This document shows, piece after piece, positions 9,153-48,971 of a stretch of 53,703 nucleotides of DNA. Made by a program: the position numbers and the translations under genes. The notes under the pieces are model-generated. The model did no database searches, was not told the DNA's origin, and worked only from the letters and a program-made list of their open reading frames with translations. Origin of the DNA: Candidatus Poribacteria bacterium (lineage in GTDB: Bacteria; Poribacteria; DTPJ01; WJIO01); assembly GCA_014730235.1 (NCBI GenBank), contig WJIO01000153.1, positions 1 to 53,703 of the forward strand. Reading direction: 5' to 3'. Numbering within the stretch: the first letter of the stretch is position 1; each line of letters begins with the position of its first letter.

Positions 9153-9161
9153 ATATATTTA

Positions 9162-9497: not shown

Positions 9498-9524
9498 TAG
9501 ACTAAACTACCGGAGGTGTGTTAA

Positions 9525-17677: not shown

Positions 17678-17690
17678 ATCCGGAAGAACC
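17546..17690. mobile_element. ISL3-like MITE (plus an extra end fragment) overlapping the 3' end of the YCF48-like gene
   Basis: GGCTCTTCCGGGTTCAGTATGGTAAAGATAAGAAACTTC at 17573, half REP GTCATTCCTGCGAAA, right end CTAAATCCGGAAGAACC at 17690, degenerate end at 17546; no clear target duplication. Confidence 0.75.
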
Positions 17691-17750
17691 ACATATAATA
17701 CTGAATACTGGTTACTTAGTGCTGCTGAATTAACACGGAGGTATAACAAA

Positions 17751-33151: not shown

Positions 33152-33152
33152 A

Positions 33153-35432
33153 ATGAGTGATAAAGCAGAAAATATTAAAATACTGGTAGTGGAAGACGAA
33201 GGTATTGTGGCTCAACATATAAAAAAAATACTGGAAAGAATAGGTTATACTGTATCAAAATTAGTTTCCTCTGGTGAAAAAGCTATTGATTTTATTAAGC
33301 AGGAACGCCCAAACCTGGTTCTTATGGATATAATGCTAAAAGGTCAGATGGATGGTATAGACACCGCTCAGCAAATCCGCAATAAATTTAATATACCCGT
33401 AGTATACCTAACAGCTTATGCGGATAATGGTACACTACAAAGAGCCAAACAAACTGAACCTTATGGGTATCTGGTAAAACCCTTCCAGGAAAAAGACCTT
33501 CGTACAACAATTGAAATGGCTATATATAAGCACAAGATGGAAAGTAAACTGGCGGAAAGTGAAGAGCGATTTTACCAGCTTGTAAACCTTTTACCTGAGA
33601 TAGTTTTTGAAACTGATATCAACAATAATATTATCTTTGCAAACCAGACTGCATTCCGGGAATATGGATATACACCGGAGAAGTTAAAATCCGGTTTAAA
33701 TGCGTATGATACAATTATCCCTGAAGAACGGGAAAAAGCAAAAAGAAACTTCAGCAGAATTATAGAAGGTGAAAAAATTGGTGGTACTGAATATACAGCT
33801 TTGCGAAGCGATGGAAGCACATTTCCTGTTATTATCCACTCTACACCTATAATAAAAAACGACAAAATTTGTGGTCTGCGCGGCATAGTTTTTAATTTGA
33901 CAAAAGTAAAAGAAGCCGAACAGGAAATAATTAGACAAAGGGATAAGGCCCAACGCTATCTGGACGTAATTGAAGTAATGATGATAACGTTAAATGTTGA
34001 TCAGGAGATTACGCTGATAAACCGCAAAGCATGTGAAATTCTTGGTTATGAAGAAAATGAAATACTGGGTAAGAAATGGTTTGATAATTTTATACCCGAG
34101 TCTGAAAGAGAAATAGAAAAAAGTAATTTCAAGAGATTAATTGCTGGAGATATCGAGCAGATTAAATATTATGAAAATTCAGTTTTAACAAAATATGGCG
34201 AAAGAATTATTGCATGGCATAACTCTCTACTTACTAACGAAAATGGAAAAATTATTGGAACCCTTAGTTCTGGGGAAGATGTTACAGAAAAGCGTAAAAT
34301 GGAACAGGATATACTTCGGATGCAAAAGCTGGAATCAATAGGCATGCTGGCAGGGGGTATTGCTCATGACTTTAATAATATATTAACGGCTGTTTTAGGC
34401 AACATATCCCTGGCACGTATATACGAAGATGCTGAAAGTGTAGACAAAAGGCTGGAAGCCGCTGAAAGAGCTCTGGATCAGGCCAGAAGTTTGACTCAAC
34501 AATTACTTACGTTTTCCAGGGGAGGGATGCCTTTAAAGGAAGCTATATCTGTTGAAGAATTACTGAAAGAATCAGCAATTCTTGCCCTTAGAGGTTCCCG
34601 GGCAGTATGCGAATTTGATATAGCACCGGATTTATGGCCTATAGAAGCCGATGAGAATCAGCTTTCACAGGTTATAAGTAATATTGTTATGAACGCAGAT
34701 CAGTCCATGCCCGAAGGTGGAATTGTAACAATATCAGCAATAAACACCCGGGTAAAACAAAATCAATTTGTAAATATTGATGAAGGTGATTACATCAAAA
34801 TATCTATACAGGACACTGGTATTGGCATACCCAAAAAACATCTGGATAGAATTTTTGAACCGTATTTCAGCACAAAACAAAAGGGAAGCGGATTGGGACT
34901 TGCTGTGTCTTATTCCATAATAGAGAAACACGAAGGTTATATTGATGTAGAGACTGAGCAAGGCGTTGGTTCAACTTTCCATATATATCTTCCACGCTTA
35001 ATAGAAGATGAAACAGAAGATAAGCAAGTTGATGAGAAAGCATTATTTGAAAGCCGGGAAGTAGAAGGCAAAATACTGGTAATGGATGATGAAGAACCAA
35101 TAAGAGAGCTTTCAGAGGCTATTTTATCGAATCTTGGATACCAGGTGGTAACTGTAGAAAATGGGGAATCAGCTATTGAAATATACAAAAGAGCGATGAA
35201 TTCCGGTGAAACATTCGACGCTGTAATACTTGATCTGACAATCCCCGGTGGGATGAGTGGAAAAGATACGATAGAGGTATTATTGGAGATTGACCCGGAT
35301 ATAAAGGCAATAGTATCAAGTGGATATTACGACGATCCGGTTATGTCTGATTACAAAAATTACGGTTTTAAGGGTGTTATCAAAAAGCCCTATGTACCAA
35401 AGGATATGATTGAAGTTTTACAAAAATTATAA
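33153..35432 (+). CDS. Hybrid histidine kinase REC-PAS-PAS-HisKA-HATPase-REC
   Basis: N-terminal REC (MDI.L, LTAYAD, KPF), AHDFNN H-box, GSGLGL, C-terminal REC (LDLTIPGG). Confidence 0.93.
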   Translation: MSDKAENIKILVVEDEGIVAQHIKKILERIGYTVSKLVSSGEKAIDFIKQERPNLVLMDIMLKGQMDGIDTAQQIRNKFNIPVVYLTAYADNGTLQRAKQTEPYGYLVKPFQEKDLRTTIEMAIYKHKMESKLAESEERFYQLVNLLPEIVFETDINNNIIFANQTAFREYGYTPEKLKSGLNAYDTIIPEEREKAKRNFSRIIEGEKIGGTEYTALRSDGSTFPVIIHSTPIIKNDKICGLRGIVFNLTKVKEAEQEIIRQRDKAQRYLDVIEVMMITLNVDQEITLINRKACEILGYEENEILGKKWFDNFIPESEREIEKSNFKRLIAGDIEQIKYYENSVLTKYGERIIAWHNSLLTNENGKIIGTLSSGEDVTEKRKMEQDILRMQKLESIGMLAGGIAHDFNNILTAVLGNISLARIYEDAESVDKRLEAAERALDQARSLTQQLLTFSRGGMPLKEAISVEELLKESAILALRGSRAVCEFDIAPDLWPIEADENQLSQVISNIVMNADQSMPEGGIVTISAINTRVKQNQFVNIDEGDYIKISIQDTGIGIPKKHLDRIFEPYFSTKQKGSGLGLAVSYSIIEKHEGYIDVETEQGVGSTFHIYLPRLIEDETEDKQVDEKALFESREVEGKILVMDDEEPIRELSEAILSNLGYQVVTVENGESAIEIYKRAMNSGETFDAVILDLTIPGGMSGKDTIEVLLEIDPDIKAIVSSGYYDDPVMSDYKNYGFKGVIKKPYVPKDMIEVLQKL

Positions 35433-35464
35433 TATATAAATAATACTGATATTTCTAAAATTAA

Positions 35465-35629
35465 CTAAAACCAGATGTTGCAGTGCTTAAATAGACACTA
35501 GCAAATGAAAATGCTACCAGGCTGTCATTCCTGCGAAACTCTTATTCTTTTTTGCTCAAGCTTTTTCAAAAAGCTTGAAGCAGGTTCATCTGTTTCTTTA
35601 TGCTGAATTCTTATAAACATTGGTTTTAG
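35465..35629. repeat. REP hairpin with the 41-nt loop insert, inside a different pair of inverted ends
   Basis: CTAAAACCAGATGTT ... AACATTGGTTTTAG enclosing TGTCATTCCTGCG[41 nt]GAAGCAGG. Confidence 0.65.
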
Positions 35630-35657
35630 AGATTTTTTAGAATTCTCAGTAATATAA

Positions 35658-36989
35658 TTAATCCCTTTTATAAATCCAGTAAGAATTTCCCGGTTTCATA
35701 AAATACAGAATATCATGGTTAAAAGGTGGATATATTTTCCATTTCCCGGTTTTATTGTCAAAACCAAAAACATTAACATTACCTTCTGCTAAAACAGCTA
35801 AAACCTGTTCTACCGGTTGTATTAACGAAGAATTGTAACTTACTAAATTCCAGCCTGTATTTAAATTAGAAACCTCATTATAATATTGTCCTGCATCCAG
35901 AACCAGCATTCCATCCTCACGCATCTGTATACAGTAACTTTTACCCGGATCAATAGTGTTAATTCTATTGGGTATCAAGCGATCATCTGTATGGTAAGAA
36001 CTCCAAATACCTGTAAAAAAATTATATGACCAGATCGAAATGACTTTATCAATTATCGTTCCCAGAGCATCTTCAACATTACTTGGGTTGAGATATACTG
36101 GTGTAGAGAAGTAATTCCATCCCGCTTTAAGCTTTATGATCGGAAAAAAGAAGATATACGGTTCAACAGGTATATCTGCAACTTTTTGATCTTGTGCCAA
36201 AAATTTTGATTTGTTTCCATATAATACCTGAATAGTATAAGTATCATCATCCTGAGCTTCTGAACTGGGAATTACATTTATATTATAATTCCCCATAATT
36301 GCACTGGGAATAATTACTATATCATCTTCTTCTCCATCGTTATTCATATCCAGTTCTACATAGGTTGCCGCTGGTATTTCTGTAGAAGATTTATTAATCT
36401 GTTTGCCTTCCGGGTCAGTAACAACCAAATCCACAGGTGAGAGGGCTTTTATTAATAAGCCAGGAGTATTGTAAACTATCGTAACAGAACCATTGGAAGT
36501 ATGTGCGGGTACCTCTGTTAAGTTTGCTTTAAAAGATGCTTTTATAAAGTTGAATAACCCCATATCACCAAATTTGACTGTATCCCGAACTCTGAATCTC
36601 ACTTTAACCAGATGACCGGAACCTTCTAATGGAGATAAATTCAGCATATTTATAAGAAAATAATCTTCACCAAGTCCTGCAGCTATCATCCAATCAGAAG
36701 TTATTGTATCATCCCGAACAATAGCAGTATCAGTTTCTGGTGATTTCTCAGGATACACAAGTTCGGGGTCGAAGCCAACTTCCAACTCAATCAGATTAAT
36801 ACCCTGACCCGTTGCATCACTTATGCTAATAGGAAGTATAAATACTTCACCTGGCAAAGATTTAATATCTGGCATAGATACATCAATATCGGCTTTGGAA
36901 ATATCAGGAATCAGGAATATAAGAATTATTGATATAGAAAGATAAATGTAGATAAATGATGCATTAATCCCACAGGTTGTTTTCTTCAT
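35658..36989 (-). CDS. Exported cohesin-like domain protein with C-terminal GWN repeats
   Basis: Signal peptide; V.MPD....PGE...LPI.I ... FDP ... GSG.LV.VRF ... NGSVTI cohesin-like pattern; SPVDL.VTDP.G module; two L..GWN..S repeats. Confidence 0.65.
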   Translation of the reverse strand: MKKTTCGINASFIYIYLSISIILIFLIPDISKADIDVSMPDIKSLPGEVFILPISISDATGQGINLIELEVGFDPELVYPEKSPETDTAIVRDDTITSDWMIAAGLGEDYFLINMLNLSPLEGSGHLVKVRFRVRDTVKFGDMGLFNFIKASFKANLTEVPAHTSNGSVTIVYNTPGLLIKALSPVDLVVTDPEGKQINKSSTEIPAATYVELDMNNDGEEDDIVIIPSAIMGNYNINVIPSSEAQDDDTYTIQVLYGNKSKFLAQDQKVADIPVEPYIFFFPIIKLKAGWNYFSTPVYLNPSNVEDALGTIIDKVISIWSYNFFTGIWSSYHTDDRLIPNRINTIDPGKSYCIQMREDGMLVLDAGQYYNEVSNLNTGWNLVSYNSSLIQPVEQVLAVLAEGNVNVFGFDNKTGKWKIYPPFNHDILYFMKPGNSYWIYKRD

Positions 36990-36998
36990 GATAAACCT

Positions 36999-38684
36999 TT
37001 AAGGGTCAAGTGCCTTTGTCAGAAAAACCACATCAACACGACGGTTTTGTCTACGCCCTTCTTCATTTATATTTGAAGCTATAGGACGGGTCTCACCATA
37101 GCCAACTGAGGATAAATTTTTCAAAGGTATATTCTCCTGGTCTACAAGATATCTAAGGAAATTATGGGCCCGCTCTGTGGATATTTTAAGATTTGATTCA
37201 TCAGAACCCTGGCTGTCTGTATGTCCCTCTATTATTAACTTGATTTGGGGATATTTCCTTAAAATATCGGCCAGAGATTTCATCCGGTCTTTAATATCTT
37301 CACGAATTCGACTGCTTCCCTGGGAAAATAAATTGCCGCCCATGCTTATGACAACACCTGCTTCTGTTCTGCGAATACTGGATTCAGGTATATTCTGAGC
37401 GTTCTGAATAATATCATTTTCAATTTCTGCTATCTTGCGATCCTGCTCATTTTTAGCCTCTACCATCTTAATAGCTGTTACGGCGTAGGCAGAACTTTCC
37501 CTTGAAATAGATACAGCTTTTTCAAAATCCTCTTGCTGAAGAGCTTTTCTTGCGTTATCCAGAGCTTCAAAAGCTTTGTAATAAATTTCCCCAGCCACTT
37601 CTTCAGCACCCTCTGATTGAGCCTGAGAAATATTTCTTTCTGCCTTTGCAATAGCATCAAGGGCATTGGCTCTAATATCTTCCAGAGCTTCCCGTTCACG
37701 GTTTTCCCTGTCCTTTTTCTGAGCTACAATAAGGTTACTGGATGCTGAAATTCTAGCTTCATCAGCCAGGGATTCAGCCCGGTCATATCTTTTAGCATCT
37801 AATGCAATTTTAGCTTCATTTATCAGCTTTTCAGCCTGTTGAAACATGCTGGAATTTTCATCAGCCAAAACCCCTTTTGCCTGTTCCAGGATCAGTTCTG
37901 CTTTTGTAATAGATGAAGCAGCCCTATCTCTGCCTCTCAGGGATTCCTCTGATTCAGCCTCTAATCTTGCCCGAGCCTGCACAACAGCGTTGGCGGCATT
38001 TCTGGAAGCCTCCATTGAAGCTTCCAAAGCCTTGTCAAAATTACCTTCGTCTAATTCTGATTTCGCAATATTCAGAGAGGCAACGGCAGCATCGTAAGGT
38101 TGTTGAGCATATCTGGATGCCTTAACTTCATCAGCCAATCTTATTTCCAGTTCTGCTTTGGATATTTCCAGTTCTGTTTTTGCATGCTGTATATCCTGTT
38201 CCGCTTTTTTCATAGCTTCCTGGGCTGATTTTTCGGCTAAACGGGCTTTTTCCTCAGCTATCTTTAGTTTCGTTTCGGCCAAAGCCAGTTCATCCCCACG
38301 CATGGCCCACATAATTTCAGAAATACCTCCCTGAGCTTCCATTATCCGACGTTCAGCCTTAATCTTACCAGCTATTGCTATTGAGATAAGGGCTTCCAGA
38401 TTGGCCATATAAGCCATCTCCATTGCCTTTTGATTATTACCTTTTCTAAGCACTTCCTGGGCAACTTCAACAAGGTTATTGGCTCTTTCCATCTGCTCAG
38501 GAGCGTATTCAGAAGCATTTTGTTCCTGAGCGATAGCAATGGAATTGCGCGCCTCTACTACCGAATTGCTTGCTGTACCTGCATCTACTTCCATTGCACC
38601 TCTTGTTGCGCATCCAGCTAAAACAAGAATAACAATTAGAAAGATAAAAATCCCGGATAAAGGGTATCTAAAATATGTAGCCAT
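36999..38684 (-). CDS. OmpA-family lipoprotein with about four DUF4398-like helical repeats
   Basis: Lipobox LAGC; Ala-rich repeats; C-terminal IEGHTDS ... NL.IS.ERA ... GYGE.RP ... NRRVD. Confidence 0.9.
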   Translation of the reverse strand: MATYFRYPLSGIFIFLIVILVLAGCATRGAMEVDAGTASNSVVEARNSIAIAQEQNASEYAPEQMERANNLVEVAQEVLRKGNNQKAMEMAYMANLEALISIAIAGKIKAERRIMEAQGGISEIMWAMRGDELALAETKLKIAEEKARLAEKSAQEAMKKAEQDIQHAKTELEISKAELEIRLADEVKASRYAQQPYDAAVASLNIAKSELDEGNFDKALEASMEASRNAANAVVQARARLEAESEESLRGRDRAASSITKAELILEQAKGVLADENSSMFQQAEKLINEAKIALDAKRYDRAESLADEARISASSNLIVAQKKDRENREREALEDIRANALDAIAKAERNISQAQSEGAEEVAGEIYYKAFEALDNARKALQQEDFEKAVSISRESSAYAVTAIKMVEAKNEQDRKIAEIENDIIQNAQNIPESSIRRTEAGVVISMGGNLFSQGSSRIREDIKDRMKSLADILRKYPQIKLIIEGHTDSQGSDESNLKISTERAHNFLRYLVDQENIPLKNLSSVGYGETRPIASNINEEGRRQNRRVDVVFLTKALDP

Positions 38685-38706
38685 AATGTCCCCTCTACAT
38701 ACATTA

Positions 38707-39129
38707 CTAATTTGTTTGATTTTTGTATTTTTTCAGTTCTTTTTCAGCTTCTATTAGTTCAGTATTTACTTTAGCCGCCTGAGTGGAAATATTTTGCAAT
38801 TCTTTTTCCATTTGGCTTGCTTCAGATTCAACTTTTCTCTGCTTTGCAATAGCTTCGGCAAGACGTGCTTGGGCTTCGGCCTGATGAAGAAGGAGCAATG
38901 CCTGATTGGTTTCACCCATTTGTAATTTCTTATTGGCGTTATCCCTGCTGCTTTTGGCATTCTGGAACTCCTGCTTGGCCAAAATTTCCGCATCAGCTTG
39001 TTTAGCTTTTGATATGCTGGCATCAACAGACTCTAACAGTGGTTCAATTAACTGCCCTTGACCACCGCAACCGACCAGAATCAAAAAACATAAAATCAGA
39101 ATCGTAGATGATGGAATCAGGAAAGACAT
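38707..39129 (-). CDS. DUF4398-like lipoprotein
   Basis: Start reassigned to ATG 39129 (RBS GAGGTG); lipobox LVGC; A..A.A..LA..E...A ... A.A.A.LAEA. Confidence 0.75.
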   Translation of the reverse strand: MSFLIPSSTILILCFLILVGCGGQGQLIEPLLESVDASISKAKQADAEILAKQEFQNAKSSRDNANKKLQMGETNQALLLLHQAEAQARLAEAIAKQRKVESEASQMEKELQNISTQAAKVNTELIEAEKELKKYKNQTN

Positions 39130-39149
39130 AGACACCTCTGATAAACAGA

Positions 39150-39175
39150 AAGTGGTTGGATTTAACCAACCACTT
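39150..39175 (-). terminator. Intra-cluster hairpin (weak terminator or stabiliser)
   Basis: AAGTGGTTGG / CCAACCACTT stem between the TPR and DUF4398 genes. Confidence 0.4.
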
Positions 39176-39199
39176 CTAAGATATTGTTTGGATGAAGTT

Positions 39200-40435
39200 T
39201 TATGGATGTGCGTTGGGATCTGTATCTGAAGTTCCCGCAGTAGATTCCTCATAATACGGGTATCCATCCTGATCTTCATCGTATTCATATTGTCTTACCT
39301 TGAGTTCAGCAGCTTTATAAAGTTTGCCATCAGGATATGTATCCCGGTAAGTCTTGTAATATTCGTAGGCGTTTTCGTATTGTCTTAAACTTTCGTAACA
39401 AATAGCCATATTGTATATAGCTTCACCACGTCGAAAATCTGTTGGATGATACTTAATATAATTATTATAAGCATCCAAAGCTTCAAAGTATTGTCCCATT
39501 TCCAACTGGTAAGTTTCAGCTATACCAAATCTTGCCTGAGCTGCCTGACGAAGCATGAGAGGTACTCTATCAATCAACATTCGATATGCTTCTATGGCTT
39601 TTGGATAATTTTTCAACTGTCGCCATTTGGTTGCGACCGCCAGGAAAGACTGAGCGACCTGCTCCTGTTTAATTCCATATCTTTCATAACCAGTAATATT
39701 ACGTCCCTCAGGAACTTTTCGTTTCTGAGCTTCTCTTATAAAGGCGATGTGTTCACTTATTTCACCGCGAATTTTATTGGTTTCTCTAAGCAAGTCCTGA
39801 ACTTCACTCACACGGAATTTAAGATCAGGATAATTTTCTTCGTTTACTTTTTCAAATTCATTCCAACCAGCATCCAGATCATACAGCTTATAGAAATATA
39901 TATTACCAATATTAACCTGTGCCTGGGCAGCTTTTGGACTACCAGGGAACTCTTCGATTAACTGATTATAAACTTCTATTGCCCTATCATAGTTACCCAG
40001 TCTGTTATCATATATAGATCCAAGTTCCATAAGGGCATCAGCGGCTACATCAGTACCAGGATTGTTACTATGCAATATTCTAAGCCTTTCGATATCCCTT
40101 CTACTTTCTCTTATCTGAGATACCCTGTTTCTGGCTTCTGTACCCAGGTAGCTCATTTTAGGCTCAGAATCGGCAACTTCCTGGAAAATCGCCATAGCTT
40201 CATCGAATTTTCCCTGGAATTTGTATGATTCACCTATATAGAATTTGGCCCGGTTTGTATAATCTCCACCCTGGGCAACAATTTCCTGAAAAGTTACAAT
40301 AGCTTCTTCGTAGTTTCCTGCTTCAAATTCCTTTAAACCACTTTCAAAATCAATACCTTCTGTTGTACAGCTATTTAGTGCTATAACAACAAACAGCAGA
40401 GCTACACACAAAGTAGCAATATATATCTGCCTCAT
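39200..40435 (-). CDS. TPR lipoprotein with a C-terminal DxDxDG motif
   Basis: Start ATG 40435 (RBS GGAGGA); lipobox LNSC; TPR repeats; tail DEDQDGY..YEE...GT...DP. Confidence 0.85.
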   Translation of the reverse strand: MRQIYIATLCVALLFVVIALNSCTTEGIDFESGLKEFEAGNYEEAIVTFQEIVAQGGDYTNRAKFYIGESYKFQGKFDEAMAIFQEVADSEPKMSYLGTEARNRVSQIRESRRDIERLRILHSNNPGTDVAADALMELGSIYDNRLGNYDRAIEVYNQLIEEFPGSPKAAQAQVNIGNIYFYKLYDLDAGWNEFEKVNEENYPDLKFRVSEVQDLLRETNKIRGEISEHIAFIREAQKRKVPEGRNITGYERYGIKQEQVAQSFLAVATKWRQLKNYPKAIEAYRMLIDRVPLMLRQAAQARFGIAETYQLEMGQYFEALDAYNNYIKYHPTDFRRGEAIYNMAICYESLRQYENAYEYYKTYRDTYPDGKLYKAAELKVRQYEYDEDQDGYPYYEESTAGTSDTDPNAHP

Positions 40436-40523
40436 TATAGTTCCTCCTCGGTTACCTTTATTGGCGGATTTGGTTTGATGTTTTAAACCCTTTAACGTCA
40501 AAACCAAAGTTTAAATTTTGGAG

Positions 40524-41777
40524 CTAATCTCCTATACTGGTTAGCTCAAAGTTTATGGGTATTTCACCATACTGCTCTTTTTGCTCATAGTTTTTGGGTA
40601 GTGCCTCAAATCTTATTTGCTCAACGTAATTACTTGCCAAAGTATCAAGTCTTGGGCTACCAGACTTTTTCACAACTTTAACGTTAGTTACATATCCGGC
40701 TGGATTAACCCAGAGCTTGATTATTGTAGTACCACCTTTACTGGCCTGGTATCCTTCGGGTAGTTTGGGCCAGAATACAACCTTCCTGCCAGCAATATCG
40801 CCGGTAATTTCGCCGGCAAAACTGGGTTTGGCTACTTCATCAGAAGGCCCGACTCGATCTTCAGGATAAGACACATCGCTTTCAACACGATTTGGCGGTC
40901 TTGCTATATTTGATCTGGGGCCATCTTTCACCTGCTGCTGAGTTCGTCCTATCTCAAGAACAGGTTTCTTTGTGCTATCCAAGGCCGAATCAACATTAAT
41001 AGCAGGGGCATTATCCTGGGGTTGAACCTCGCGTTCGCTGCGCGTGGCTGATCTCAACACCATATCACTGCCCTTGTCCGACACCCGGGCAAGGGTTTTG
41101 GGCAGTTGCGGCATAGAGTCCTCTATTTCACTTCCTGGGGCTGTGTCAGTTACGCTTTGTATCTCGATCTTGGGTAAAGTCGGTGCTTTTTCAGCAACAG
41201 TCTTATTCTGAGGTATAATCTCAGCCATTAAAGGTTGTTGTTCTTCTTCTATCTCTTCTATAGTTACAATAATTTCATTTTCTTCTGGCATTTCGGCTGT
41301 ATCTGCCGGCGCACCGTATATCAATATAGCAAGTATAGCTATAACAACAACATTTTCAGCGATAGCCAATATAAAGAAGGACGCCAATTCTTTTCTGGAT
41401 ATATAGGAAAATGCTCCAACTCCAGTAACGGTGCTGACAGCAGCATAGCCAATACTTATATTAAATCCCCAGAAACCAAGAACACCTATGACATTAACAG
41501 CAACTATTGCAGGACATACATATAATGCCAGAGCAGAAGCCCATACCTGTGATGTTACATAACCAATAGCACTGGTTACCCATAATGCACCTGCAATAAG
41601 CATTGCTAAACCAAATATAATTGATCCAACTTTAATTGTGGGAGTAAGGTGCATTGCTTCTGCCGTTGGTCTTGCACCCTCAACAACTGCCATTATACCA
41701 AGAACGACGTTAAGAACTCCCACAGCCAGAAGCACAATAACAATTATCCATTTTTTTCCTGATGATATTTCATTCAT
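40524..41777 (-). CDS. TonB-family protein with a polytopic (about 5 TM) N-terminus
   Basis: About 155-aa hydrophobic N-terminus, P/E-rich linker, TonB_C pattern G...IKLWV...G.V..VKV.K.SG...LD..A. Confidence 0.8.
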   Translation of the reverse strand: MNEISSGKKWIIVIVLLAVGVLNVVLGIMAVVEGARPTAEAMHLTPTIKVGSIIFGLAMLIAGALWVTSAIGYVTSQVWASALALYVCPAIVAVNVIGVLGFWGFNISIGYAAVSTVTGVGAFSYISRKELASFFILAIAENVVVIAILAILIYGAPADTAEMPEENEIIVTIEEIEEEQQPLMAEIIPQNKTVAEKAPTLPKIEIQSVTDTAPGSEIEDSMPQLPKTLARVSDKGSDMVLRSATRSEREVQPQDNAPAINVDSALDSTKKPVLEIGRTQQQVKDGPRSNIARPPNRVESDVSYPEDRVGPSDEVAKPSFAGEITGDIAGRKVVFWPKLPEGYQASKGGTTIIKLWVNPAGYVTNVKVVKKSGSPRLDTLASNYVEQIRFEALPKNYEQKEQYGEIPINFELTSIGD

Positions 41778-41823
41778 CTGTTAACACCACCTGTCATGTA
41801 CTGGACTTGACAGACCAAAAATA

Positions 41824-42507
41824 CTAATCCTCATCTTCGTCTTCGCCGCTCATTTCCGATTCCTGTGTTACCAGTCTGGATTCTCCTGTTGTAAAGAAGC
41901 GCACCAGGGAAAACGAATGACGTACCATTTCGTTTATCATACTATCTACTTTTGACATAAAATAAGCATAAGCTATCATAGCGGGAATTGCAACTGTCAG
42001 ACCGGCAGCAGTAGTCAAAAGTGCATAGGAAACTCCCCTTGCAACAGTAGTCGCTGTGTCAGGTCTGTCTGTTCTCCAAACAGCACCAAAAGAAATAAAC
42101 ATACCGGAAACTGTACCTAAAAGCCCGATAATAACAGCTATTCCACCGAGAAAAGACAGGGTTTTCAGATACTTCTGTAAACGGAGCTTTTCCAAATTTG
42201 CGGTTTGATTAATGACCGCCCATAAGTCCGGTTTTCTTAAGTACCTGTTTTTTATTGCGACTTTTATTATCTTTGTAAGAGGGCCCGGTCGTGAATCACA
42301 TAGAGAAAGGGCAAGGTCCAGCTTTCCTTTTTCAAGCACTCTATAGATCCTTGCGATGAAACGACGAGGCATGAGTTTTCTCCTGCGCAGATTATATAAA
42401 CGTTCAAGAATAATAGCATGGGAAAACAGAGAGCAAAAAAGTAGAGGTATAAGTAAAGGTCCACCATTGCCCAGTTGAGAAAATCCACCTGTTATAGCAT
42501 CAATCAT
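41824..42507 (-). CDS. MotA/TolQ/ExbB proton-channel family protein
   Basis: GG....PL..CS ... IILER; GLLGTV.GM..SF; ALLTTA.GL.VAIPA. Confidence 0.92.
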   Translation of the reverse strand: MIDAITGGFSQLGNGGPLLIPLLFCSLFSHAIILERLYNLRRRKLMPRRFIARIYRVLEKGKLDLALSLCDSRPGPLTKIIKVAIKNRYLRKPDLWAVINQTANLEKLRLQKYLKTLSFLGGIAVIIGLLGTVSGMFISFGAVWRTDRPDTATTVARGVSYALLTTAAGLTVAIPAMIAYAYFMSKVDSMINEMVRHSFSLVRFFTTGESRLVTQESEMSGEDEDED

Positions 42508-42579
42508 AATTATTTAAACATATTCAATGTAAAATACAAGTTGTTTTAAATTCAAACTGTGCATTTAATTTATTGTTTT

Positions 42580-42671
42580 GGTTCTTCCAACTTGAGTGTG
42601 GAAATAAAAAAATTTTTCTAATTAAGAAAAAATCTCATCTTTTTGTCATTCCTGCTTTTGCAGGAATGACA
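42580..42671. mobile_element. Truncated ISL3-like MITE with a REP hairpin
   Basis: GGTTCTTCCAACTTGAGTGTGGAAAT ...; colinear with the reverse complement of 28581-28719 through TGTCATTCCTGC-TTTT-GCAGGAATGACA; second end absent. Confidence 0.75.
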
Positions 42672-42685
42672 GGCTAGGGTTCTAG

Positions 42686-42721
42686 GCTTGTAGGAACACG
42701 GCATGCCGTGTTCCTACAAGC
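42686..42721. repeat. GTAG-type REP palindrome
   Basis: Perfect 36-bp palindrome GCTT-GTAGGAACACGGCATGCCGTGTTCCTAC-AAGC. Confidence 0.8.
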
Positions 42722-42784
42722 GCATAAATAATATGTCTTTTAAAAAGTGCGAAAGTATAGTCTTTAGAGATTCTATTTATATAG

Positions 42785-44545
42785 TTAAAATTTCAAAACT
42801 AAACCCAAATCAATCATCCAATCTGGCAATCCGTATTCTTTCCAGATTTGATATTTATCCTCTCCAAAATAAAATTGGCTTGAAGCAAAGACCTTCGCAT
42901 ATTTTCCAAAGCTTTTTGATATACCCGGTTTCACAAGGAAATAGCCAGGAAGTGTTTCTTCGCCATTCAATTCTGTATATCTTATTCCCCAGAATTCACC
43001 ATCAACAGAAAACTCCAGACCCAGCGGGGCTTCATAGGTAAAGCCAAGAAGGCCTTTATTATTTGGTCTGTATGGAATATTAATGTCGTTTTCCTGCTGG
43101 TGAAATTCTTGTATATATTCAACGTTATGTTTTAAACGATCTCCAAATGCTGAACCTTCCCATCCTGCTTTAAAACCATATATGCGAGAACTTTCCAGAG
43201 AAATAGGCTTCCAGGATAAGGTATCATCCTGAATATTTTCAAATATTACCAGGTCATCAACTTCACGATCAAAAGCTTCGGCAGTTATTGCGAATTTTCT
43301 TGTTATTCTATACTGCAAAGATGCTTTTATATCCCAGGATCTTTCCAGACTTAAAGATGGATTTAATCGCATATAATTATTCTGGATATATAAATCTCTA
43401 AGGTTCTGTCTAATGACATTTCTTTCAACACCAAATTTAAGTATAGCATTTCTACCTAGTCTCGATGTAAATATAAGATTTGGATTCAGATATATATCCG
43501 GTTCCCATCCTTCACCATTTTCAGAACCTTTACGGGCATCAAATAATAAATTCAATTCAGCGCTTAAGACAAATATCAGGAATCTTATATACTGGTCACG
43601 AACATATAGCTTTACTGTTGCTTCCTGTGCTTCTTCGTTTTCATTTTCTCCATCAAGATATGATATGTCTCCGCCCATTTCAATGGGATTGGATTTAGAT
43701 AGTAACGCGCTAAATCCTAATCCTGCCTTGATATCCAACGCACCATGAGAATCAGATGTAACGGGTTCGGTCATTTGAAGGTTTGTAATATCCAAATTAA
43801 TAGATGCGTCAAAATTATCTGAAAGTTTTTGATCCAGATCCAGATACGCGTTTGCTATTGACCTATCGTTCTCATAATTTGCACCAGTATTGCTTAAATA
43901 AGCCATATCTTTGGCTTTATAATTCACATCGACTTTCAGATTTGTATTCTCAGTCTGATATGTAATAGCTCCCCGCAGTTTATCAATATTAAATTCTTCC
44001 AGATTATTATTTTCATTACTGACCATCTCTGGTGTTCTTTCTTTTCTTAAAGATGTTCTACCAGCTTCAACTAATGCCTCTGCATTGCCAAATCCCCTGA
44101 AGAATAGCATCTGGTATGATAAAACTACAGGAACACCCGAATAAGCCTTAATAGAAACCAGGAAATCCCGCTCTGATTCCTCTTTAGTATCACTCAGTTT
44201 TCCCGGAAGAGATGTAGGGGGAAGATACCAGGGACGCTCTTTTCGTTTCAATGGAGTATATATTCTGGAATCAGGCTTAGTAAAGCTGTGAAATTTCTCC
44301 TTTGGAATTTTAAGCTGGGTGGTATCCAGAATTTCTATATTAACAGTCGGAAGATCCATTATTTTGTCTTCATCGTCTTCGTCTTCCTTTATTTCCTCCT
44401 GGCTGTATGAATTTGCTAGAGCGAGAGTCAGGAAACCAACAAATAAGATACAAAACAATAAATATACAAATATTTTGTGGCTTGTTTTGGATCTCAGGTT
44501 TTGGGGCCTATCTCTCACCCGCATCACCTCCTGGAGCAGTCTCAA
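42785..44545 (-). CDS. Outer-membrane beta-barrel, TonB-dependent-receptor-like
   Basis: Hydrophobic N-terminal segment, amphipathic strands, NPSL.LERS motif, C-terminal DLGLVLKF; start codon uncertain. Confidence 0.7.
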   Translation of the reverse strand: MRLLQEVMRVRDRPQNLRSKTSHKIFVYLLFCILFVGFLTLALANSYSQEEIKEDEDDEDKIMDLPTVNIEILDTTQLKIPKEKFHSFTKPDSRIYTPLKRKERPWYLPPTSLPGKLSDTKEESERDFLVSIKAYSGVPVVLSYQMLFFRGFGNAEALVEAGRTSLRKERTPEMVSNENNNLEEFNIDKLRGAITYQTENTNLKVDVNYKAKDMAYLSNTGANYENDRSIANAYLDLDQKLSDNFDASINLDITNLQMTEPVTSDSHGALDIKAGLGFSALLSKSNPIEMGGDISYLDGENENEEAQEATVKLYVRDQYIRFLIFVLSAELNLLFDARKGSENGEGWEPDIYLNPNLIFTSRLGRNAILKFGVERNVIRQNLRDLYIQNNYMRLNPSLSLERSWDIKASLQYRITRKFAITAEAFDREVDDLVIFENIQDDTLSWKPISLESSRIYGFKAGWEGSAFGDRLKHNVEYIQEFHQQENDINIPYRPNNKGLLGFTYEAPLGLEFSVDGEFWGIRYTELNGEETLPGYFLVKPGISKSFGKYAKVFASSQFYFGEDKYQIWKEYGLPDWMIDLGLVLKF

Positions 44546-47500
44546 GAGCCTCTATTTTCTCCAACTGTTTACGGGCAAAATCTATGGCTGTATCCCAATC
44601 CGGCTTTTTCTTGTCGTAGTATTCACCACCTGGATTAGCATAATCTTTAATTATCTTGCGATACCAGATAGCTGCGTCGCTCCATCTTCCCAGTCTTTCA
44701 TAACTGTATCCGGCTCTTGAAAGAGCGTATATTCCCAGGTCAGGATCAAAATATACAAGAGAAACCCTGAGATAAGCCTCAGCCGCTTCCTCGTATTGGC
44801 CCATTTCATATAGACCTTCAGCCTTGTATAATTGGGCAGAGGCTTCAATTTCTTTGCTATAAGTTCCGGGATTTTTCAGTATAACATCAAAAGCTTCCAC
44901 TGCCTCTTTATATCTACCCATCTCATGCAAAACTCTACCCAGTAGCAATTGAGCATTTGGTGAATCCTCACTCTCTGGATAATTTTTCAAAAGTCTCCTG
45001 TAAGCTTCTTCAGCATCCTGCCATTTAAGTAAATCCTGGTTTGCCTGACCTATAGCAAAAAGCGCCCTGGGTGCTTCTACGCTATTAGGATAAGATTTCA
45101 CCACATTTTCATATGCATTTATGGATTTTTGCAGATCACGCTCCGGGTTATTCTTATCATACCAGCATTGCCCTATTTCATAAGCAGATTTTGAAGCTGA
45201 AGATGAGTTAGGGTATGACGCAACAGTCTTTTCAAAAGCACTTATGGCCTGAGAATATGAGCCAAGTTGCTTGTAACTTATTCCAATATTATACTGAGCC
45301 CGGGAAGCTGATGAGCTTTTGGGATATGTATTAATAACAGCTTGGTATTCAGCAATAGCTTGAGCATAATTATTTCTGTCATAGTTATAATTACCTAATT
45401 CCATCTGAACAATAGGTGAATATTCGCTTTGTGGATATATCCTGAGCAACATTCGATAAGCAGTCAGCGCTTCCCTGCTGTTGCCTGCCTGTTCATAGGC
45501 CTGGGCGATAGAGTATTGAGCATCATCAGAAAGGTCATGGGTAGGATAATTATCAATAAGTTGCTGATAAGATTTGATAGCGGTGATATAATCAGAAAGG
45601 TTATAATATGCATCAGCTATTTTAAACATGGCTTCGGGTCTGAGATCGCTGTTTTTATAATCTCTTGTAATACGTTCATATTGAGATATAGCTTCTTCAT
45701 ATTTATTCATCTCAAAATACGAGTCACCCATCAGAGCCAAAGCTTTATCCACAAGTTCAGTACCTTTATTATTTTCAATTAAAGCTTTTGCCGTTTGTAT
45801 AGCTTCCTGATAGTCCTTTTGTTTGTATCTGCACCATGCTATCCAGTATTGAGAATCATCAACTAAATTGCTCTGAGGATAAAGAGTAATAACAACCCGG
45901 AAAGCCTCAATCGCAGAGGAATAATTGTTGATATTAATAAATGCGTAACCAATGTAATATTGGGCTTTTCCGCTGACGCTGCTGCCCTTATAATCGGATG
46001 TAACCTCCTGCCAGGAATTTATTGCCTGGTTGTAAAGAGAATTCCTTGATCTGGTATTTTCTGTTGATCTGGCCTGGTCGAAATAAGTTAACCCTATGCC
46101 ATATTGGCTCTGATCATTCCATTCACCATCAGGATTGTTATTTATCAGGTCGGTGTATTCTTTCCGTGCATCGGCGTATTTATTTTGCGAGTATAAAGAT
46201 TCGGCAATATAAAATCTGGCTTTATATACAAATTCACTGTCGGGATATTGCTGTTGAAATTTTCTAGCAGCGTTTATTGCATCTTCATAGCGATCCAGTT
46301 CAAATAATGAAACTATTTTCCAGTATAATGCGGCATCGGATTGGGCACTGGTCATATCCGTATTCGGATATTCCTGAAGGAATCTGTCAACAGCGCTAAC
46401 GGTTTCGTTATATTTGTTAATCTGGAAATACGAGGTAGCTATTCTGAAAAGAGCCTGAGGTTTAAATTCAGTTTTAGGGAACTTCGTCAAAAGCAAATCG
46501 AAAGCGTCTATTGCTTCCTGATATTGCTTTAGCTCAAGATAAGCCAGCGCGCTCCAATATGCCGCCCTGTCGCCATATTCTGAAGCGACGTTTACCCTGG
46601 AGAATTCCAGCAAAGCCGAATTATAATCCTGCTGTTGGAAGCGACACTGACCCATATGGAATCTGGTAGCATCCTCCCATTCTGTATCACGATATGTCAG
46701 CACCAGCTTGAATTCTTTATAAGCTTTGGAGTATTCCTCCTCCATAAGATACGTGTAAGCTATGCTGTACCTGGCATCATCAGCAACACGGCTGGTAGGA
46801 TAAATCTCAATAACTTTGCCATATTCATATTTTGCTTCAGCATATTTCTTTTGAGCATATAATACCTCAGCTATACCATATTGAGCTTCTGCGGCTCCAT
46901 CTTTAAATTCAGGATAATCATGCAAATATTTATCAAAACTTTGTCTTGCTTTATCCAGGTTACCCAATTCGGTATAAGCTTGACCCATTTTAAGAAGTGC
47001 ATCGGCGGCTATTTTCCGGGAATCGCTGTATTTATCCAGAATCATCTGGTAAACAGAAACAGCTTCTTCCCATTTTTTCAAAGCAAAAAGGCTTTCACCG
47101 GCTAAATATGCCGAATCTGGAGCTCTTTTGCTTTCAGGAAACTGCTCAACCAGCTTAATGAAAGATTGATATGATGCCTGATAACGTCGAAGATTATATA
47201 GAGACCAGGCCTTCGAATATATTGTAGTCTCTGTCTCTTTAGCTTCGGGATATTTAACCAAAAGCTGGTCATAATATTCTATGGCTTCTTCGTATCTAGC
47301 GAGATTATATAAAGCCTCACCTACCTGGTAAAGGACAAAAGACTCAATTTCCGGATCCTCTATTTGCCCGATAATATCTTTATAGGCTTGTATAGCCTCT
47401 TCGTATCTGCCTTGTTGATACCATGAATCAGCTATTCCCCGAAGGGCGTCTATCCTCAATTCACTGCCAGGATAATCGTTTAATAAAAGTTTATATTCCT

Positions 47501-47753
47501 CAACAGCCTTTGAATATTCCCCTTCATAATAAAAGCAATAGCCTATAAAAAGACGGGCATCATCAGCTTTATCGCTTTTGGGATATGTTTCAATGAATTT
47601 CTCAAACTGCTCACGAGCCATCTTGTAAGCCCGTTCCTGGAAAAGATTATAGGCAAAAGCATAATCCCTCGCTTCATCGGCATTGGAATTTGAAACAATG
47701 CAAAAAGCCAACGCTATCATAAGAACAAGTGTGGAAATGTAACGTATATCCAT
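44508..47753 (-). CDS. Large exported all-TPR protein (CpoB/BamD-like repeats)
   Basis: Signal peptide, then more than 20 tandem A.Y.IG..Y.....Y..A...Y...I..YP.S units. Confidence 0.92.
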   Translation of the reverse strand: MDIRYISTLVLMIALAFCIVSNSNADEARDYAFAYNLFQERAYKMAREQFEKFIETYPKSDKADDARLFIGYCFYYEGEYSKAVEEYKLLLNDYPGSELRIDALRGIADSWYQQGRYEEAIQAYKDIIGQIEDPEIESFVLYQVGEALYNLARYEEAIEYYDQLLVKYPEAKETETTIYSKAWSLYNLRRYQASYQSFIKLVEQFPESKRAPDSAYLAGESLFALKKWEEAVSVYQMILDKYSDSRKIAADALLKMGQAYTELGNLDKARQSFDKYLHDYPEFKDGAAEAQYGIAEVLYAQKKYAEAKYEYGKVIEIYPTSRVADDARYSIAYTYLMEEEYSKAYKEFKLVLTYRDTEWEDATRFHMGQCRFQQQDYNSALLEFSRVNVASEYGDRAAYWSALAYLELKQYQEAIDAFDLLLTKFPKTEFKPQALFRIATSYFQINKYNETVSAVDRFLQEYPNTDMTSAQSDAALYWKIVSLFELDRYEDAINAARKFQQQYPDSEFVYKARFYIAESLYSQNKYADARKEYTDLINNNPDGEWNDQSQYGIGLTYFDQARSTENTRSRNSLYNQAINSWQEVTSDYKGSSVSGKAQYYIGYAFININNYSSAIEAFRVVITLYPQSNLVDDSQYWIAWCRYKQKDYQEAIQTAKALIENNKGTELVDKALALMGDSYFEMNKYEEAISQYERITRDYKNSDLRPEAMFKIADAYYNLSDYITAIKSYQQLIDNYPTHDLSDDAQYSIAQAYEQAGNSREALTAYRMLLRIYPQSEYSPIVQMELGNYNYDRNNYAQAIAEYQAVINTYPKSSSASRAQYNIGISYKQLGSYSQAISAFEKTVASYPNSSSASKSAYEIGQCWYDKNNPERDLQKSINAYENVVKSYPNSVEAPRALFAIGQANQDLLKWQDAEEAYRRLLKNYPESEDSPNAQLLLGRVLHEMGRYKEAVEAFDVILKNPGTYSKEIEASAQLYKAEGLYEMGQYEEAAEAYLRVSLVYFDPDLGIYALSRAGYSYERLGRWSDAAIWYRKIIKDYANPGGEYYDKKKPDWDTAIDFARKQLEKIEALETAPGGDAGER

Positions 47754-47811
47754 ATTTAGCAGATACCTCACTGTTCATACCTCTCTTTGCTCTAAATCAA
47801 AGTTAATTGCT

Positions 47812-47841
47812 ATTATAACATTCAGAGGGTGTGATTTTCAA
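47812..47841 (-). promoter_or_regulatory. Putative sigma70 promoter for the TPR/barrel operon
   Basis: TTGAAA-18 bp-TATAAT with a TG extended -10. Confidence 0.6.
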
Positions 47842-47892
47842 GCACTTTTTAGGTGTATGTATAATAAAGAAAAGCATCTATATAATTATTAT

Positions 47893-47956
47893 GATTCTTC
47901 CGGATTTAGTGTGGTTATAATTGAAACTTCTTTACCAAATTGAACCCGGAAGAGCC
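47893..47956. mobile_element. Minimal 64-bp empty ISL3-like MITE
   Basis: GATTCTTCCGGATTTAGTGTGG ... GAACCCGGAAGAGCC flanked by the direct repeat ATAATTATTAT (47882-47892 and 47957-47967). Confidence 0.8.
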
Positions 47957-47979
47957 ATAATTATTATCTAAAATGATTT

Positions 47980-48645
47980 TTAGTAATTACCATTATCCAG
48001 AAGTAAAAAAGGAATTGTACGTAGAACGATCTTGAAATAAAGCTTTATTGATCTGTTTTTTATGTAATCTATATCGTATTTTACTATACTCTCAAATTCC
48101 AGATTAGATCCGCCGTTAACTTGGGCTAAACCGGTTATTCCGGGTTTTATTTTAAGCCTCTGTTTATGATAATCTGAATAAAGCTCATATTCTGATAAAA
48201 TAGGTGCTCTGGGACCTACTAGACTCATATCACCTTTTATTACATTAATAAGCTGAGGAAGTTCATCAAGACCCAAGGGCCTTATGTATTTCCCTATTCT
48301 GGTGATCCGAGTGTCATTTTTCATTTTTACTACAGGCTCAACAGAACCATCGCTGTTTTTCCTGTATTTTTGAGTCATCTTATCAGCATTTTGACACATA
48401 CTGCGAAATTTATACATCCTGAAACATTTACCATTTTCTCCAATACGCTTTCCCTTGAAGAAAACCTCTCCAGGTGACTCCATTTTAATGAGTGCAGCCA
48501 GAAATGTAAACATAGGAGTTAATGCAATAAGTCCTAAAACAGAAAATACAATGTCACTTAGTCTTATAACGTAATCATCAAAAGACCGATTTTTGCCAGT
48601 AGATGAATCAATTGATGAACCGATACCGGCAGTATAATCTGCCAT
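47980..48645 (-). CDS. Bacterial sugar transferase (priming phosphoglycosyl transferase)
   Basis: R..DI, F.MYKFRSM, D.RITRIG, LDELPQLINV.KGDMSLVGPR, KPGITGLAQV. Confidence 0.93.
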   Translation of the reverse strand: MADYTAGIGSSIDSSTGKNRSFDDYVIRLSDIVFSVLGLIALTPMFTFLAALIKMESPGEVFFKGKRIGENGKCFRMYKFRSMCQNADKMTQKYRKNSDGSVEPVVKMKNDTRITRIGKYIRPLGLDELPQLINVIKGDMSLVGPRAPILSEYELYSDYHKQRLKIKPGITGLAQVNGGSNLEFESIVKYDIDYIKNRSIKLYFKIVLRTIPFLLLDNGNY

Positions 48646-48751
48646 TAGATACCTCCTGTTTAAACTTAAAGAGCAGCAGGAAAATCAAAAAACCAAAACA
48701 TTTCTGAGGCATATAAAACCTATATTAGTTAAAGATATTTCAAAAACTTGC

Positions 48752-48956
48752 GGTTCTTCCGGGTTTAATGTGGCTATAATTGAAAATTCTCTCAGTTTGT
48801 CATTACTGCGAAACTCTTATTCCTTTTTGCTCAAGCTTTTTCAAAAAGCTTGAAGCAGGAATCCAGTAGATCCGCATAAAACTCGGATTCCTGATTTTGC
48901 AGGAATGACAGTATAAAGAAGTTTCTTATCTTTACCCCACTCAAGCCGGAAAAGCC
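48752..48956. mobile_element. ISL3-like MITE with a REP pair and the 41-nt loop insert
   Basis: Reverse-complement homologue of 6211-6373 plus an insert at 48811-48851; flanks AAACTTGC / AAATTTGC (7/8). Confidence 0.85.
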
Positions 48957-48971
48957 AAATTTGCTTAATAT

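Follow-up and report, generated by a model that had tools for sequence, protein, structure and literature searches.

A conserved seven-gene envelope cluster with ExbB, TonB and a plug-less barrel: a possible Ton/Tol-type module in Poribacteria

The gene cluster and its conservation

We analyzed a 53,703-nucleotide stretch of DNA from a Candidatus Poribacteria bacterium (contig WJIO01000153.1 of assembly GCA_014730235.1), which we refer to as the window. On the minus strand, positions 35658-47771 of the window hold eight tightly packed and co-oriented open reading frames (ORFs). In order of transcription, these encode a giant protein with tetratricopeptide repeats (TPRs), an outer-membrane barrel, an ExbB-family channel, a TonB, a TPR lipoprotein, a small DUF4398 protein, a protein with both DUF4398 and OmpA domains, and a protein with a cohesin domain (Table 1). 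A preliminary description of this DNA, made from its sequence alone, had listed eight co-oriented genes with these domains, and Pfam and NCBIfam, which we used for all domain assignments, confirm it.

We reset the start codons of the barrel, the TPR lipoprotein, and the DUF4398 protein by comparison with their orthologues and by looking for ribosome-binding sites. With the corrected starts, the TPR, DUF4398, and OmpA proteins all open with lipoprotein signals. GGAGG-like sites precede the barrel gene and the three lipoprotein genes. The start codon of the barrel lies behind such a site and overlaps the stop of the giant TPR gene, which suggests that these two genes are translationally coupled. 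(For the giant TPR protein, the longest ORF opens with GTG at 47771, and an in-frame ATG lies six codons inside it.)

Table 1. Features of the cluster in order of transcription, with the amino acid identity of each shared protein to its counterpart in the distant locus L001.
Feature	Position	Strand	Identity with L001	Details
Best sigma-70-like site of the region	47812..47841	minus		TTGAAA, 18-nt spacer, TATAAT, upstream TG; consensus match only; just upstream of the giant TPR gene
Giant periplasmic TPR protein	44508..47771	minus	56% over 1052 aa	1087 aa from GTG, 1081 aa from ATG 47753; signal peptide; about 14 TPR modules of the YbgF/CpoB type
Outer-membrane barrel, predicted 22 strands, Plug-less	42785..44524	minus	39%	start ATG 44524, full ORF to 44545; ends in Phe
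Intergenic gap	42508..42784	minus		two perfect hairpins, 42687-42720 (16-bp stem) and 42645-42670 (12-bp stem); gap not present in L001
ExbB/TolQ-family inner-membrane channel	41824..42507	minus	54%	227 aa; three transmembrane helices
TonB	40524..41777	minus	34%	417 aa; four added N-terminal helices, anchor helix, linker, TonB_C
TPR lipoprotein	39200..40435	minus	61%	411 aa from ATG 40435 (ORF 435 aa); lipobox LNSC; CpoB-like TPR modules
Small DUF4398 lipoprotein	38707..39129	minus	36%	140 aa from ATG 39129; lipobox LVGC
DUF4398 + OmpA lipoprotein	36999..38684	minus	38% over 550 aa	561 aa; lipobox LAGC; C-terminal OmpA-type peptidoglycan-binding domain
Exported cohesin-domain protein	35658..36989	minus		443 aa; accessory, outside the conserved core

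A distant genome has counterparts of seven of the eight genes, and their order there is unchanged. We built a profile from 36 TonB homologues (the short fragments P0037 and P0038 were excluded) and scanned it against one genome per species. One of the 123 candidate stretches was confirmed. This locus, L001, is from a bin for an uncultured bacterium, and we compared 21 kb of it to the window. Each of the seven shared proteins is the reciprocal match of its counterpart in the window, and they are 34-61% identical. With seven of eight genes matching one-to-one and in the same order, the arrangement is not due to chance, and the earlier proposal that the gene set forms a unit stands.

The flanks of the two loci differ. 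Directly upstream of the cluster in the window, on the same strand, is a short polyprenyl-phosphate sugar transferase (Bac_transf, 221 aa, 47980-48645), while L001 has a heparinase II/III-like gene, and these are unrelated to each other. (The 531-aa gene at the end of the window is not related to the heparinase-like gene either.) Downstream, an M20 peptidase takes the place of the cohesin gene in L001. Because the flanks differ, we consider the seven genes to be the conserved unit and the cohesin gene to be accessory, so the earlier inclusion of cohesin in the machine has to be dropped.

There is also an indirect sign that tonB and exbB are linked in other genomes: for 15 of 37 TonB homologues, the longest contig is identical in length to that of an ExbB homologue. 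The closest named relative of the window's ExbB is a Candidatus Poribacteria protein (67% identity). In L001, the longest ORF for exbB (9115-9960) opens 50 codons early, at a GTG within the barrel gene, and the alignment starts at Met51; this long form is probably an artefact of ORF calling.

Two hairpins lie in the gap that separates exbB from the barrel gene (RNA fold z = -7.9), and the larger of them is unique within the window. Neither is followed by a run of T, and Rfam has no match within 35000-49000. Since the barrel and exbB genes abut in L001, we view the gap as an insertion in this genome. No Shine-Dalgarno-like site precedes exbB (start at 42507), and its upstream sequence is AT-rich. 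Another hairpin, which is terminator-like and has a stem of 11 bp, is at 39149-39176 on the minus strand, between the stop of the TPR lipoprotein gene and the start of the DUF4398 gene. It may be an internal attenuator or a processing site.

Outer-membrane and periplasmic proteins

The barrel protein (586 aa for the full ORF, ending in LKF) does not match any family in Pfam or NCBIfam. A word-based search found only two relatives for it, while an exhaustive search with a profile returned 244 representatives at E <= 0.001, including 17 below 1e-30. We ran Pfam on 20 of the 150 listed relatives: no family was assigned to the seven nearest, only the barrel of TonB-dependent receptors to two, and both this barrel and the Plug domain to the other eleven.

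We then obtained an AlphaFold model of the barrel from an alignment of 50 sequences. (An earlier model from three sequences was too poor, with a pLDDT of 41.2.) This model (pLDDT 86.9) has a disordered stretch at residues 42-118 and, beginning at residue 119, 22 strands that extend to the C-terminus. When the model was compared to the Protein Data Bank with Foldseek, all of the matches listed were TonB-dependent transporters, such as PqqU, FrpB, and BtuB (E = 6.6e-18 and a TM-score of 0.62 for the best match). Similarly, hhalign aligned columns 110-565 of the family with columns 166-613 of the TonB-dependent transporters (probability 100%, E = 1.8e-47). This alignment spans the whole transporter barrel and nothing of the Plug. 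No Plug domain was found by Pfam, by profile alignment, or in the structure model. A 16-column hhalign match between the N-terminal extension and Plug regions was implausible, and we discarded it. Judging from the profiles and the predicted structure, the protein is a true homologue of the barrels of TonB-dependent transporters in which a disordered extension of about 75 residues replaces the Plug. The preliminary description had noted the lack of a full-size plugged receptor. The Plug is indeed missing, but with 22 strands the barrel is full-size by the standards of these transporters.

The N-terminal extension carries a strand-like motif, DLPxVxIxIxDxTQ...KERxWxLPP, which the 14 closer of the 17 family members conserve and the three distant ones retain in part. 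Given its position directly behind the signal peptide and its alternating pattern, we consider it a candidate TonB box.

Given its ancestry, the barrel could belong to an ordinary TonB-dependent uptake system. The cluster would then import a nutrient, the plug would come from a partner or from the barrel's own extension, an ExbD of another locus would be shared, and the neighboring TPR and OmpA genes would have no part in the system. The homology to transporter barrels and the presence of TonB_C and ExbB fit with this idea, and according to section 11 of PMC12204202, tonB is often apart from its motor genes. But there is no Plug, and the conserved core does not include a binding protein, an inner-membrane importer, or a catabolic gene. 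Also, the TPR and OmpA genes keep their order (the best conserved, at 56-61% identity, are the two TPR proteins), and the ExbB-TonB pair has signature residues of its own (see below). We think that uptake is improbable.

Both TPR proteins are built of YbgF/CpoB-type modules. The giant one matches TPR_6 (6e-121) and TIGR02795 (YbgF/CpoB; 474 bits, in 14 stretches). The TPR lipoprotein scores just under the cut-off of TIGR02795 (86.7 bits versus 90.1), and the CpoB model NF008068 is far below its cut-off. The small DUF4398 protein is also slightly below the cut-off for its family (25.7 bits versus 27.9), while its orthologue in L001 scores 34.0 bits. The 561-aa lipoprotein matches DUF4398 in two stretches and OmpA. 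It has the OmpA domain and the lipobox, but scores only 63 bits against the Pal model (TIGR02802; cut-off 125.35). The NCBIfam model for CHU_0125 (cut-off 620) gives 52.6 bits at the N-terminus of the TPR lipoprotein and 43.3 bits at the C-terminal end of the OmpA protein. A MotB-like role for the OmpA protein was ruled out, as this protein opens with a lipoprotein signal that lacks acidic residues. The cohesin domain is above its cut-off (31.8 bits versus 24.1), and a structure search added nothing beyond Pfam for this protein.

A giant TPR protein encoded next to a barrel is also reminiscent of polymer export. The TPR superhelix and the barrel would work together like AlgK-AlgE, PelB, BcsC, or PgaA to move a polysaccharide through the periplasm and the outer membrane, and ExbB-TonB would be a separate or regulatory add-on. 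In favor of this, the overlap of the two genes suggests translational coupling, polysaccharide genes flank both cores (Bac_transf in the window and the heparinase II/III-like gene in L001), and a TPR protein with a porin is the scheme of synthase-dependent export (10.1101/2022.02.11.480155). But the flanking genes are mutually unrelated and are not conserved, and there is no synthase in the core. The fold of the barrel, with its 22 strands, is that of transporters, and the barrels of those exporters are of the porin type. The PgaA model matched the TPR lipoprotein (the 435-aa ORF; 19.2 bits versus 1043) instead of the barrel or the giant TPR protein. Finally, in L001 it is the barrel and exbB genes that abut. 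Overall, polymer export seems very improbable to us.

ExbB, TonB and the lack of a linked ExbD

The channel protein belongs to the MotA/TolQ/ExbB family (PF01618, 6.3e-24), and its best matches among solved structures are TolQ proteins (1.7e-11). It scores far below the cut-offs for both TolQ (TIGR02796; 90.1 bits versus 221) and ExbB (TIGR02797; 54.8 bits versus 206.2). TolA and Pal scores in the cluster are also far below their cut-offs, which agrees with the earlier view that this ExbB and TonB lie outside the canonical Ton and Tol families.

We examined the functional residues in an alignment of the best 120 homologues of ExbB (a 134-aa fragment, P0273, was excluded). These split into 81 close homologues (at least 52% identity) and a next group of 38 (at most 42% identity). 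According to PMC12905483, Asp25 of ExbD and Thr148 and Thr181 of ExbB are essential residues in the pore. The pore threonines of our protein (Thr132, Thr165, and Thr166) are conserved in all 81 close homologues and in 38, 36, and 38 of the next group, respectively. Pro175 in the third transmembrane helix (TM3) is conserved in every member of both groups. In contrast, a glutamate in TM3 is present in 36 of 38 proteins of the next group but in just 6 of the 81 close homologues. At the usual position of this glutamate, the window's ExbB has Tyr161, and its close homologues have Val, His, Tyr, Leu, or others. (In the next group, 19 proteins have Glu at this position; the rest have Asn or Gln, and most of these have a Glu four residues earlier.) In the first transmembrane helix (TM1), position 30 is His in all 67 close homologues in which the region is present, versus Leu in 33 of 38 proteins of the next group. 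The ExbB of L001 has the same pattern, with Ile at the glutamate position and the His in TM1.

His30 aligns with a tryptophan of TolQ, in a part of TM1 where the TolQ alignments are weak. This position matters for the transducer: as described in PMC12905483, the helices of TonB and TolA bind at the periphery of the channel, where their Ser and His touch a conserved Ser and Trp on TM1, and this contact reaches a conserved Pro on TM3 through a network. By sequence, then, the ExbB of this cluster represents a separate subfamily with its own signature residues.

The similarity to TolQ raises the question of whether the cluster could be this lineage's substitute for Tol-Pal, with a role in tethering the outer membrane and constricting it at division. 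A Pal-like OmpA lipoprotein would be captured or released through the action of the TolQ-like channel and of a TonB that resembles TolA. In this view, the TPR lipoprotein corresponds to an ancestral CpoB that was a lipoprotein, and the N-terminal strand of the barrel would act as the N-terminus of TolB does. Several observations are consistent with this. TolQ is the channel's best match both among solved structures and in NCBIfam, both TPR proteins consist of YbgF/CpoB modules (at the scores given above), and the genes run in the order channel, transducer, TPR lipoprotein, OmpA lipoprotein. As argued in PMC12204202, CpoB began as a lipoprotein, TolB goes back to an outer-membrane protein, and further tethering systems are still to be found; PMC12905483 describes strand addition as the way that both TonB and TolA bind their partners. 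But neither locus has TolR or TolB, and the models for Tol-Pal proteins fall well short of their cut-offs (15.9 bits versus 59.45 for TolA, besides Pal and TolQ as above). The C-terminal domain of the transducer matches TonB_C and not TolA, and the giant TPR protein and the barrel have no counterpart in Tol-Pal. On balance a Tol-Pal substitute seems unlikely.

The C-terminal domain of TonB is clear: it matches TonB_C at 1e-11 and TIGR01352 above its cut-off (42.6 bits versus 27.1), as well as solved structures of TonB C-terminal domains. It is preceded by a linker of about 165 residues with short conserved motifs. The N-terminus is unusual. Hydropathy indicates four strongly hydrophobic stretches before the anchor helix, one of which is long enough for two helices, and the structural neighbors of residues 1-130 are generic four-helix membrane models only. 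Two complete homologues of 303 aa carry the anchor helix alone, so we view the four N-terminal helices as an addition. The preliminary description had called this a polytopic TonB. The extra membrane helices are there, but they are added to a canonical single-helix anchor.

In the anchor helix, Glu141 is present in 35 of 35 family members, His142 in 33 of 35, and the Ser of the Ser-x3-His docking motif in 21 of 35. The TonB of L001 has the Glu-His pair, while the window's TonB has Asn at 142 and Ala at the position of the motif Ser. Glu141 is also the only conserved acidic residue in the membrane or signal segments of the seven core proteins. To our knowledge, TonB from E. coli has no acidic residue at the equivalent position.

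The cluster seems to lack the usual partner of ExbB. ExbD/TolR (PF02472) and TolB had no match among 36 distinct ORFs of at least 120 aa in the window. (The window has 50 listed ORFs of this size; 13 shadow ORFs that overlap longer ones were outside the scan.) An exbD hidden within the cluster is excluded by size, as the intergenic gaps are at most 278 bp. In L001, there was no match to ExbD in 13 of 23 ORFs of at least 90 aa (a 313-aa ORF at the end and nine shadow ORFs were outside the scan). Neither the cluster nor the core of L001 has TolB or PD40, and tolR is missing from both loci as well. The earlier claim that exbD, TolR, and a TolB propeller are lacking holds for the 53.7-kb window and for the 21 kb of L001. 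In section 8 of PMC12204202, the absence of a syntenic tolR or exbD is called highly atypical.

The conserved threonines of the pore imply a helix that bears a carboxylate. Most likely, this helix is supplied by an ExbD from another locus. We rank this explanation first because the cytoplasmic loop between TM4 and TM5 of TonB is short, because most of the family keeps the docking motif, and because Poribacteria are reported to have ExbD genes at a separate locus (PMC5087111).

Alternatively, ExbB and TonB might form a two-protein motor without ExbD, in which the membrane glutamate of TonB couples to protons. This idea comes in two forms: Glu141 could lie in the pore of ExbB as part of an axle like that of MotB or ExbD, or it could form a Glu-His relay at the periphery. 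We did not find exbD in two distant loci, and there is a precedent of sorts in the TolQ-only motors proposed in section 8 of PMC12204202, in which von Willebrand factor A (vWA) proteins insert a trans-pore helix with an aspartate into the pentamer. Glu141 is the sole conserved acidic residue that could serve from within the core proteins' membrane or signal segments, and the TM3 glutamate of ExbB has been lost in 75 of 81 close homologues while the ring of threonines, which holds the aspartate in known motors, is kept in all 81. On the other hand, the TM4-TM5 loop is about five residues long, and given the architecture of ExbB and TolQ, the glutamate helix of a polytopic TonB could hardly enter a closed pentamer alone. 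The peripheral docking motif is mostly kept (the His more so than the Ser), Poribacteria have ExbD elsewhere, and the glutamate of TonB lies deeper in its helix than Asp25 does in ExbD. We think that a motor of this kind is rather unlikely. We would say the same of its fullest version, in which a complete ExbD-free ExbB-TonB motor, with the TonB glutamate facing His30 or the threonine ring of ExbB, opens the plug-less barrel for export or surface assembly.

Proposed mechanism and comparison with known systems

We tentatively favor the view, at somewhat less than an even chance, that the cluster is a conserved seven-gene module for force transduction of the Ton/Tol type that spans the envelope, in which TPR scaffolds and OmpA lipoproteins hold a barrel that has no plug. 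As a member of the ExbB/TolQ family, the channel would form a pentamer in the inner membrane and harvest the proton-motive force. The residue patterns suggest that the last helix of TonB docks on the outside of this pentamer at TM1 of ExbB, which is the canonical site for TonB and TolA. The contact would be remodelled: the invariant His of ExbB (Trp in TolQ) would face the invariant Glu of TonB beside the motif His, giving a Glu/His-His arrangement. These paired, subfamily-specific residues sit where TonB and ExbB touch in known structures. The linker would span the periplasm, and TonB_C would bind the N-terminal motif of the barrel by strand addition, so that a pull on the extension could gate or remodel the outer-membrane complex. 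The giant TPR protein and the TPR lipoprotein would scaffold this complex, and the DUF4398/OmpA lipoproteins would fix it to peptidoglycan.

As for what such a module might do, tethering of the outer membrane, export, or surface assembly seems more likely than nutrient import, because the barrel has no plug, the core has no uptake or catabolic gene, and the TPR proteins are the best conserved. There is a precedent for a TPR/OmpA lipoprotein that tethers the outer membrane to peptidoglycan, namely PorE/CHU_0125 (PMC12204202, section 10; PMC5891637). According to PMC5891637, outer-membrane integrity was impaired when CHU_0125 was deleted.

Several points weigh against this force-transduction module. 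First, we infer the binding steps and the function, and the latter is from the parts list only. Second, the synteny rests on one additional locus, out of 123 candidate stretches. Third, with no ExbD in either locus, the motor may be incomplete or may work otherwise. Fourth, the window's own TonB has Ala and Asn in place of the Ser and His of the docking motif. (Asn can replace His20 of E. coli TonB.) Fifth, a plug-less barrel of 22 strands with short loops, as in the model, should be an open hole. Sixth, the cluster may be transcribed in two parts in this genome, given the hairpin-rich gap of 278 bp and the missing ribosome-binding site of exbB.

Other genes in the window are of some interest in their own right. 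Two large sensor kinases at 28766-35432 on the plus strand run toward the end of the cluster. One, of 1461 aa, has Reg_prop, Y_Y_Y, PAS, and HisKA_2 domains, and the other is a hybrid kinase of 759 aa that matches receiver domains twice. At 50130-52037 on the minus strand, MoeA (with the domains of a molybdopterin molybdenumtransferase) is fused to a PBP_like domain of the periplasmic-binding type, and the fusion is adjoined by a MOSC-domain gene and by a gene with the metallo-beta-lactamase fold. The plus strand at 14759-20213 encodes a 972-aa protein with eight repeats of the Ycf48/BNR type and, after it, an 820-aa protein with CARDB and squalene-hopene-cyclase-like domains. Both are unusual exported proteins with no relation to the cluster.

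Ton and Tol-Pal are the textbook routes by which Gram-negative bacteria bring energy from the inner membrane to the outer membrane, with a 5:2 motor of ExbB/TolQ and ExbD/TolR. The cluster resembles Ton in several parts. Its channel is of the ExbB family and keeps the pore threonines and the proline of TM3, its TonB combines an anchor helix of the docking type with a long linker and TonB_C, and its barrel is homologous to transporters, has 22 predicted strands, and ends in Phe. Unlike Ton, it has no exbD beside exbB in two loci, the TM3 glutamate has been lost, and TM1 has a His where TolQ has Trp. Its TonB has an invariant membrane glutamate and four extra helices, its barrel lacks the Plug, and TPR and peptidoglycan-binding lipoproteins are fixed members. 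What it shares with Tol-Pal is a TolQ-like channel, the layout of a TolA/TonB-type transducer, CpoB-type TPR modules, an OmpA-type lipoprotein, and a broadly similar gene order. But there is no TolR or TolB propeller, the transducer's C-terminal domain is of the TonB type, the giant TPR protein and the barrel are extra, and all of the equivalog models are below their cut-offs, except for the YbgF model, which is driven by repeats.

The most similar parts list, as described in PMC3169522, is that of Agl-Glt from Myxococcus and its relatives (aglRQS, gltD, gltE, gltG, and gltC). Both systems combine a TolQ-like motor and outer-membrane barrels with a membrane protein that carries TonB_C and with two kinds of TPR protein, a large one (about 1100-1200 aa) and a lipoprotein (about 450 aa). 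Agl-Glt differs, according to the same source, in having two TolR-type proteins, a GltG with an FHA domain and a single helix, and small OmpA-like barrels. The best scores for the GltC and GltE models were far below their cut-offs (47.6 bits versus 450 and 21.1 versus 225), and the GltD and GltG models were not among the NCBIfam matches of the cluster's proteins. With ExbD, the Plug, TolR, and TolB missing and the Glt models below their cut-offs, we agree with the preliminary description that the set matches none of Ton, Tol-Pal, or Agl-Glt.

Other systems share single features. The TolQ-only motors with vWA proteins, as presented in section 8 of PMC12204202, also link a TolQ-family gene to a transducer with no tolR or exbD nearby. 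But in our cluster the transducer has TonB_C instead of vWA and keeps the peripheral docking motif, its glutamate is in mid-helix beside the docking His, and the transducer comes from one gene instead of a heterologous pair. PorE/CHU_0125, a lipoprotein of Bacteroidota that fuses TPR, TolB-like, and OmpA parts, likewise places TPR and OmpA parts on outer-membrane lipoproteins; in the cluster these are on two genes, with helical DUF4398 domains instead of a propeller. With the synthase-dependent TPR-porin exporters described in 10.1101/2022.02.11.480155, only the idea of a TPR protein with a barrel is common. A Fibrobacter case with ExbB, TPR, and OmpA proteins has a canonical exbB-exbD-exbD-tonB operon. 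Full-text literature searches for ExbD-less Ton systems, plug-less barrels, TonB of Poribacteria, DUF4398, and Fibrobacter found no description of the cluster, with the force-transducer loci across phyla in the supplements of PMC12204202 lying outside these searches.

The cluster is a real and conserved variant of the Ton/Tol family that appears not to have been described. It departs from the Ton/Tol scheme in three ways: there is no linked ExbD, the docking between motor and transducer seems to be remodelled, and the transporter-type barrel is plug-less. Any one of these departures would widen the known range of Ton/Tol motors. Two questions could be addressed with this natural system: through which residues the flow of protons is coupled to TonB, and what roles 22-strand barrels can have beyond gated import. 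Because it comes from a poorly sampled and uncultured lineage, it bears on how such envelopes are built. And if the motor does prove to be free of ExbD, it would be a third working mode beside import by Ton and tethering by Tol-Pal.

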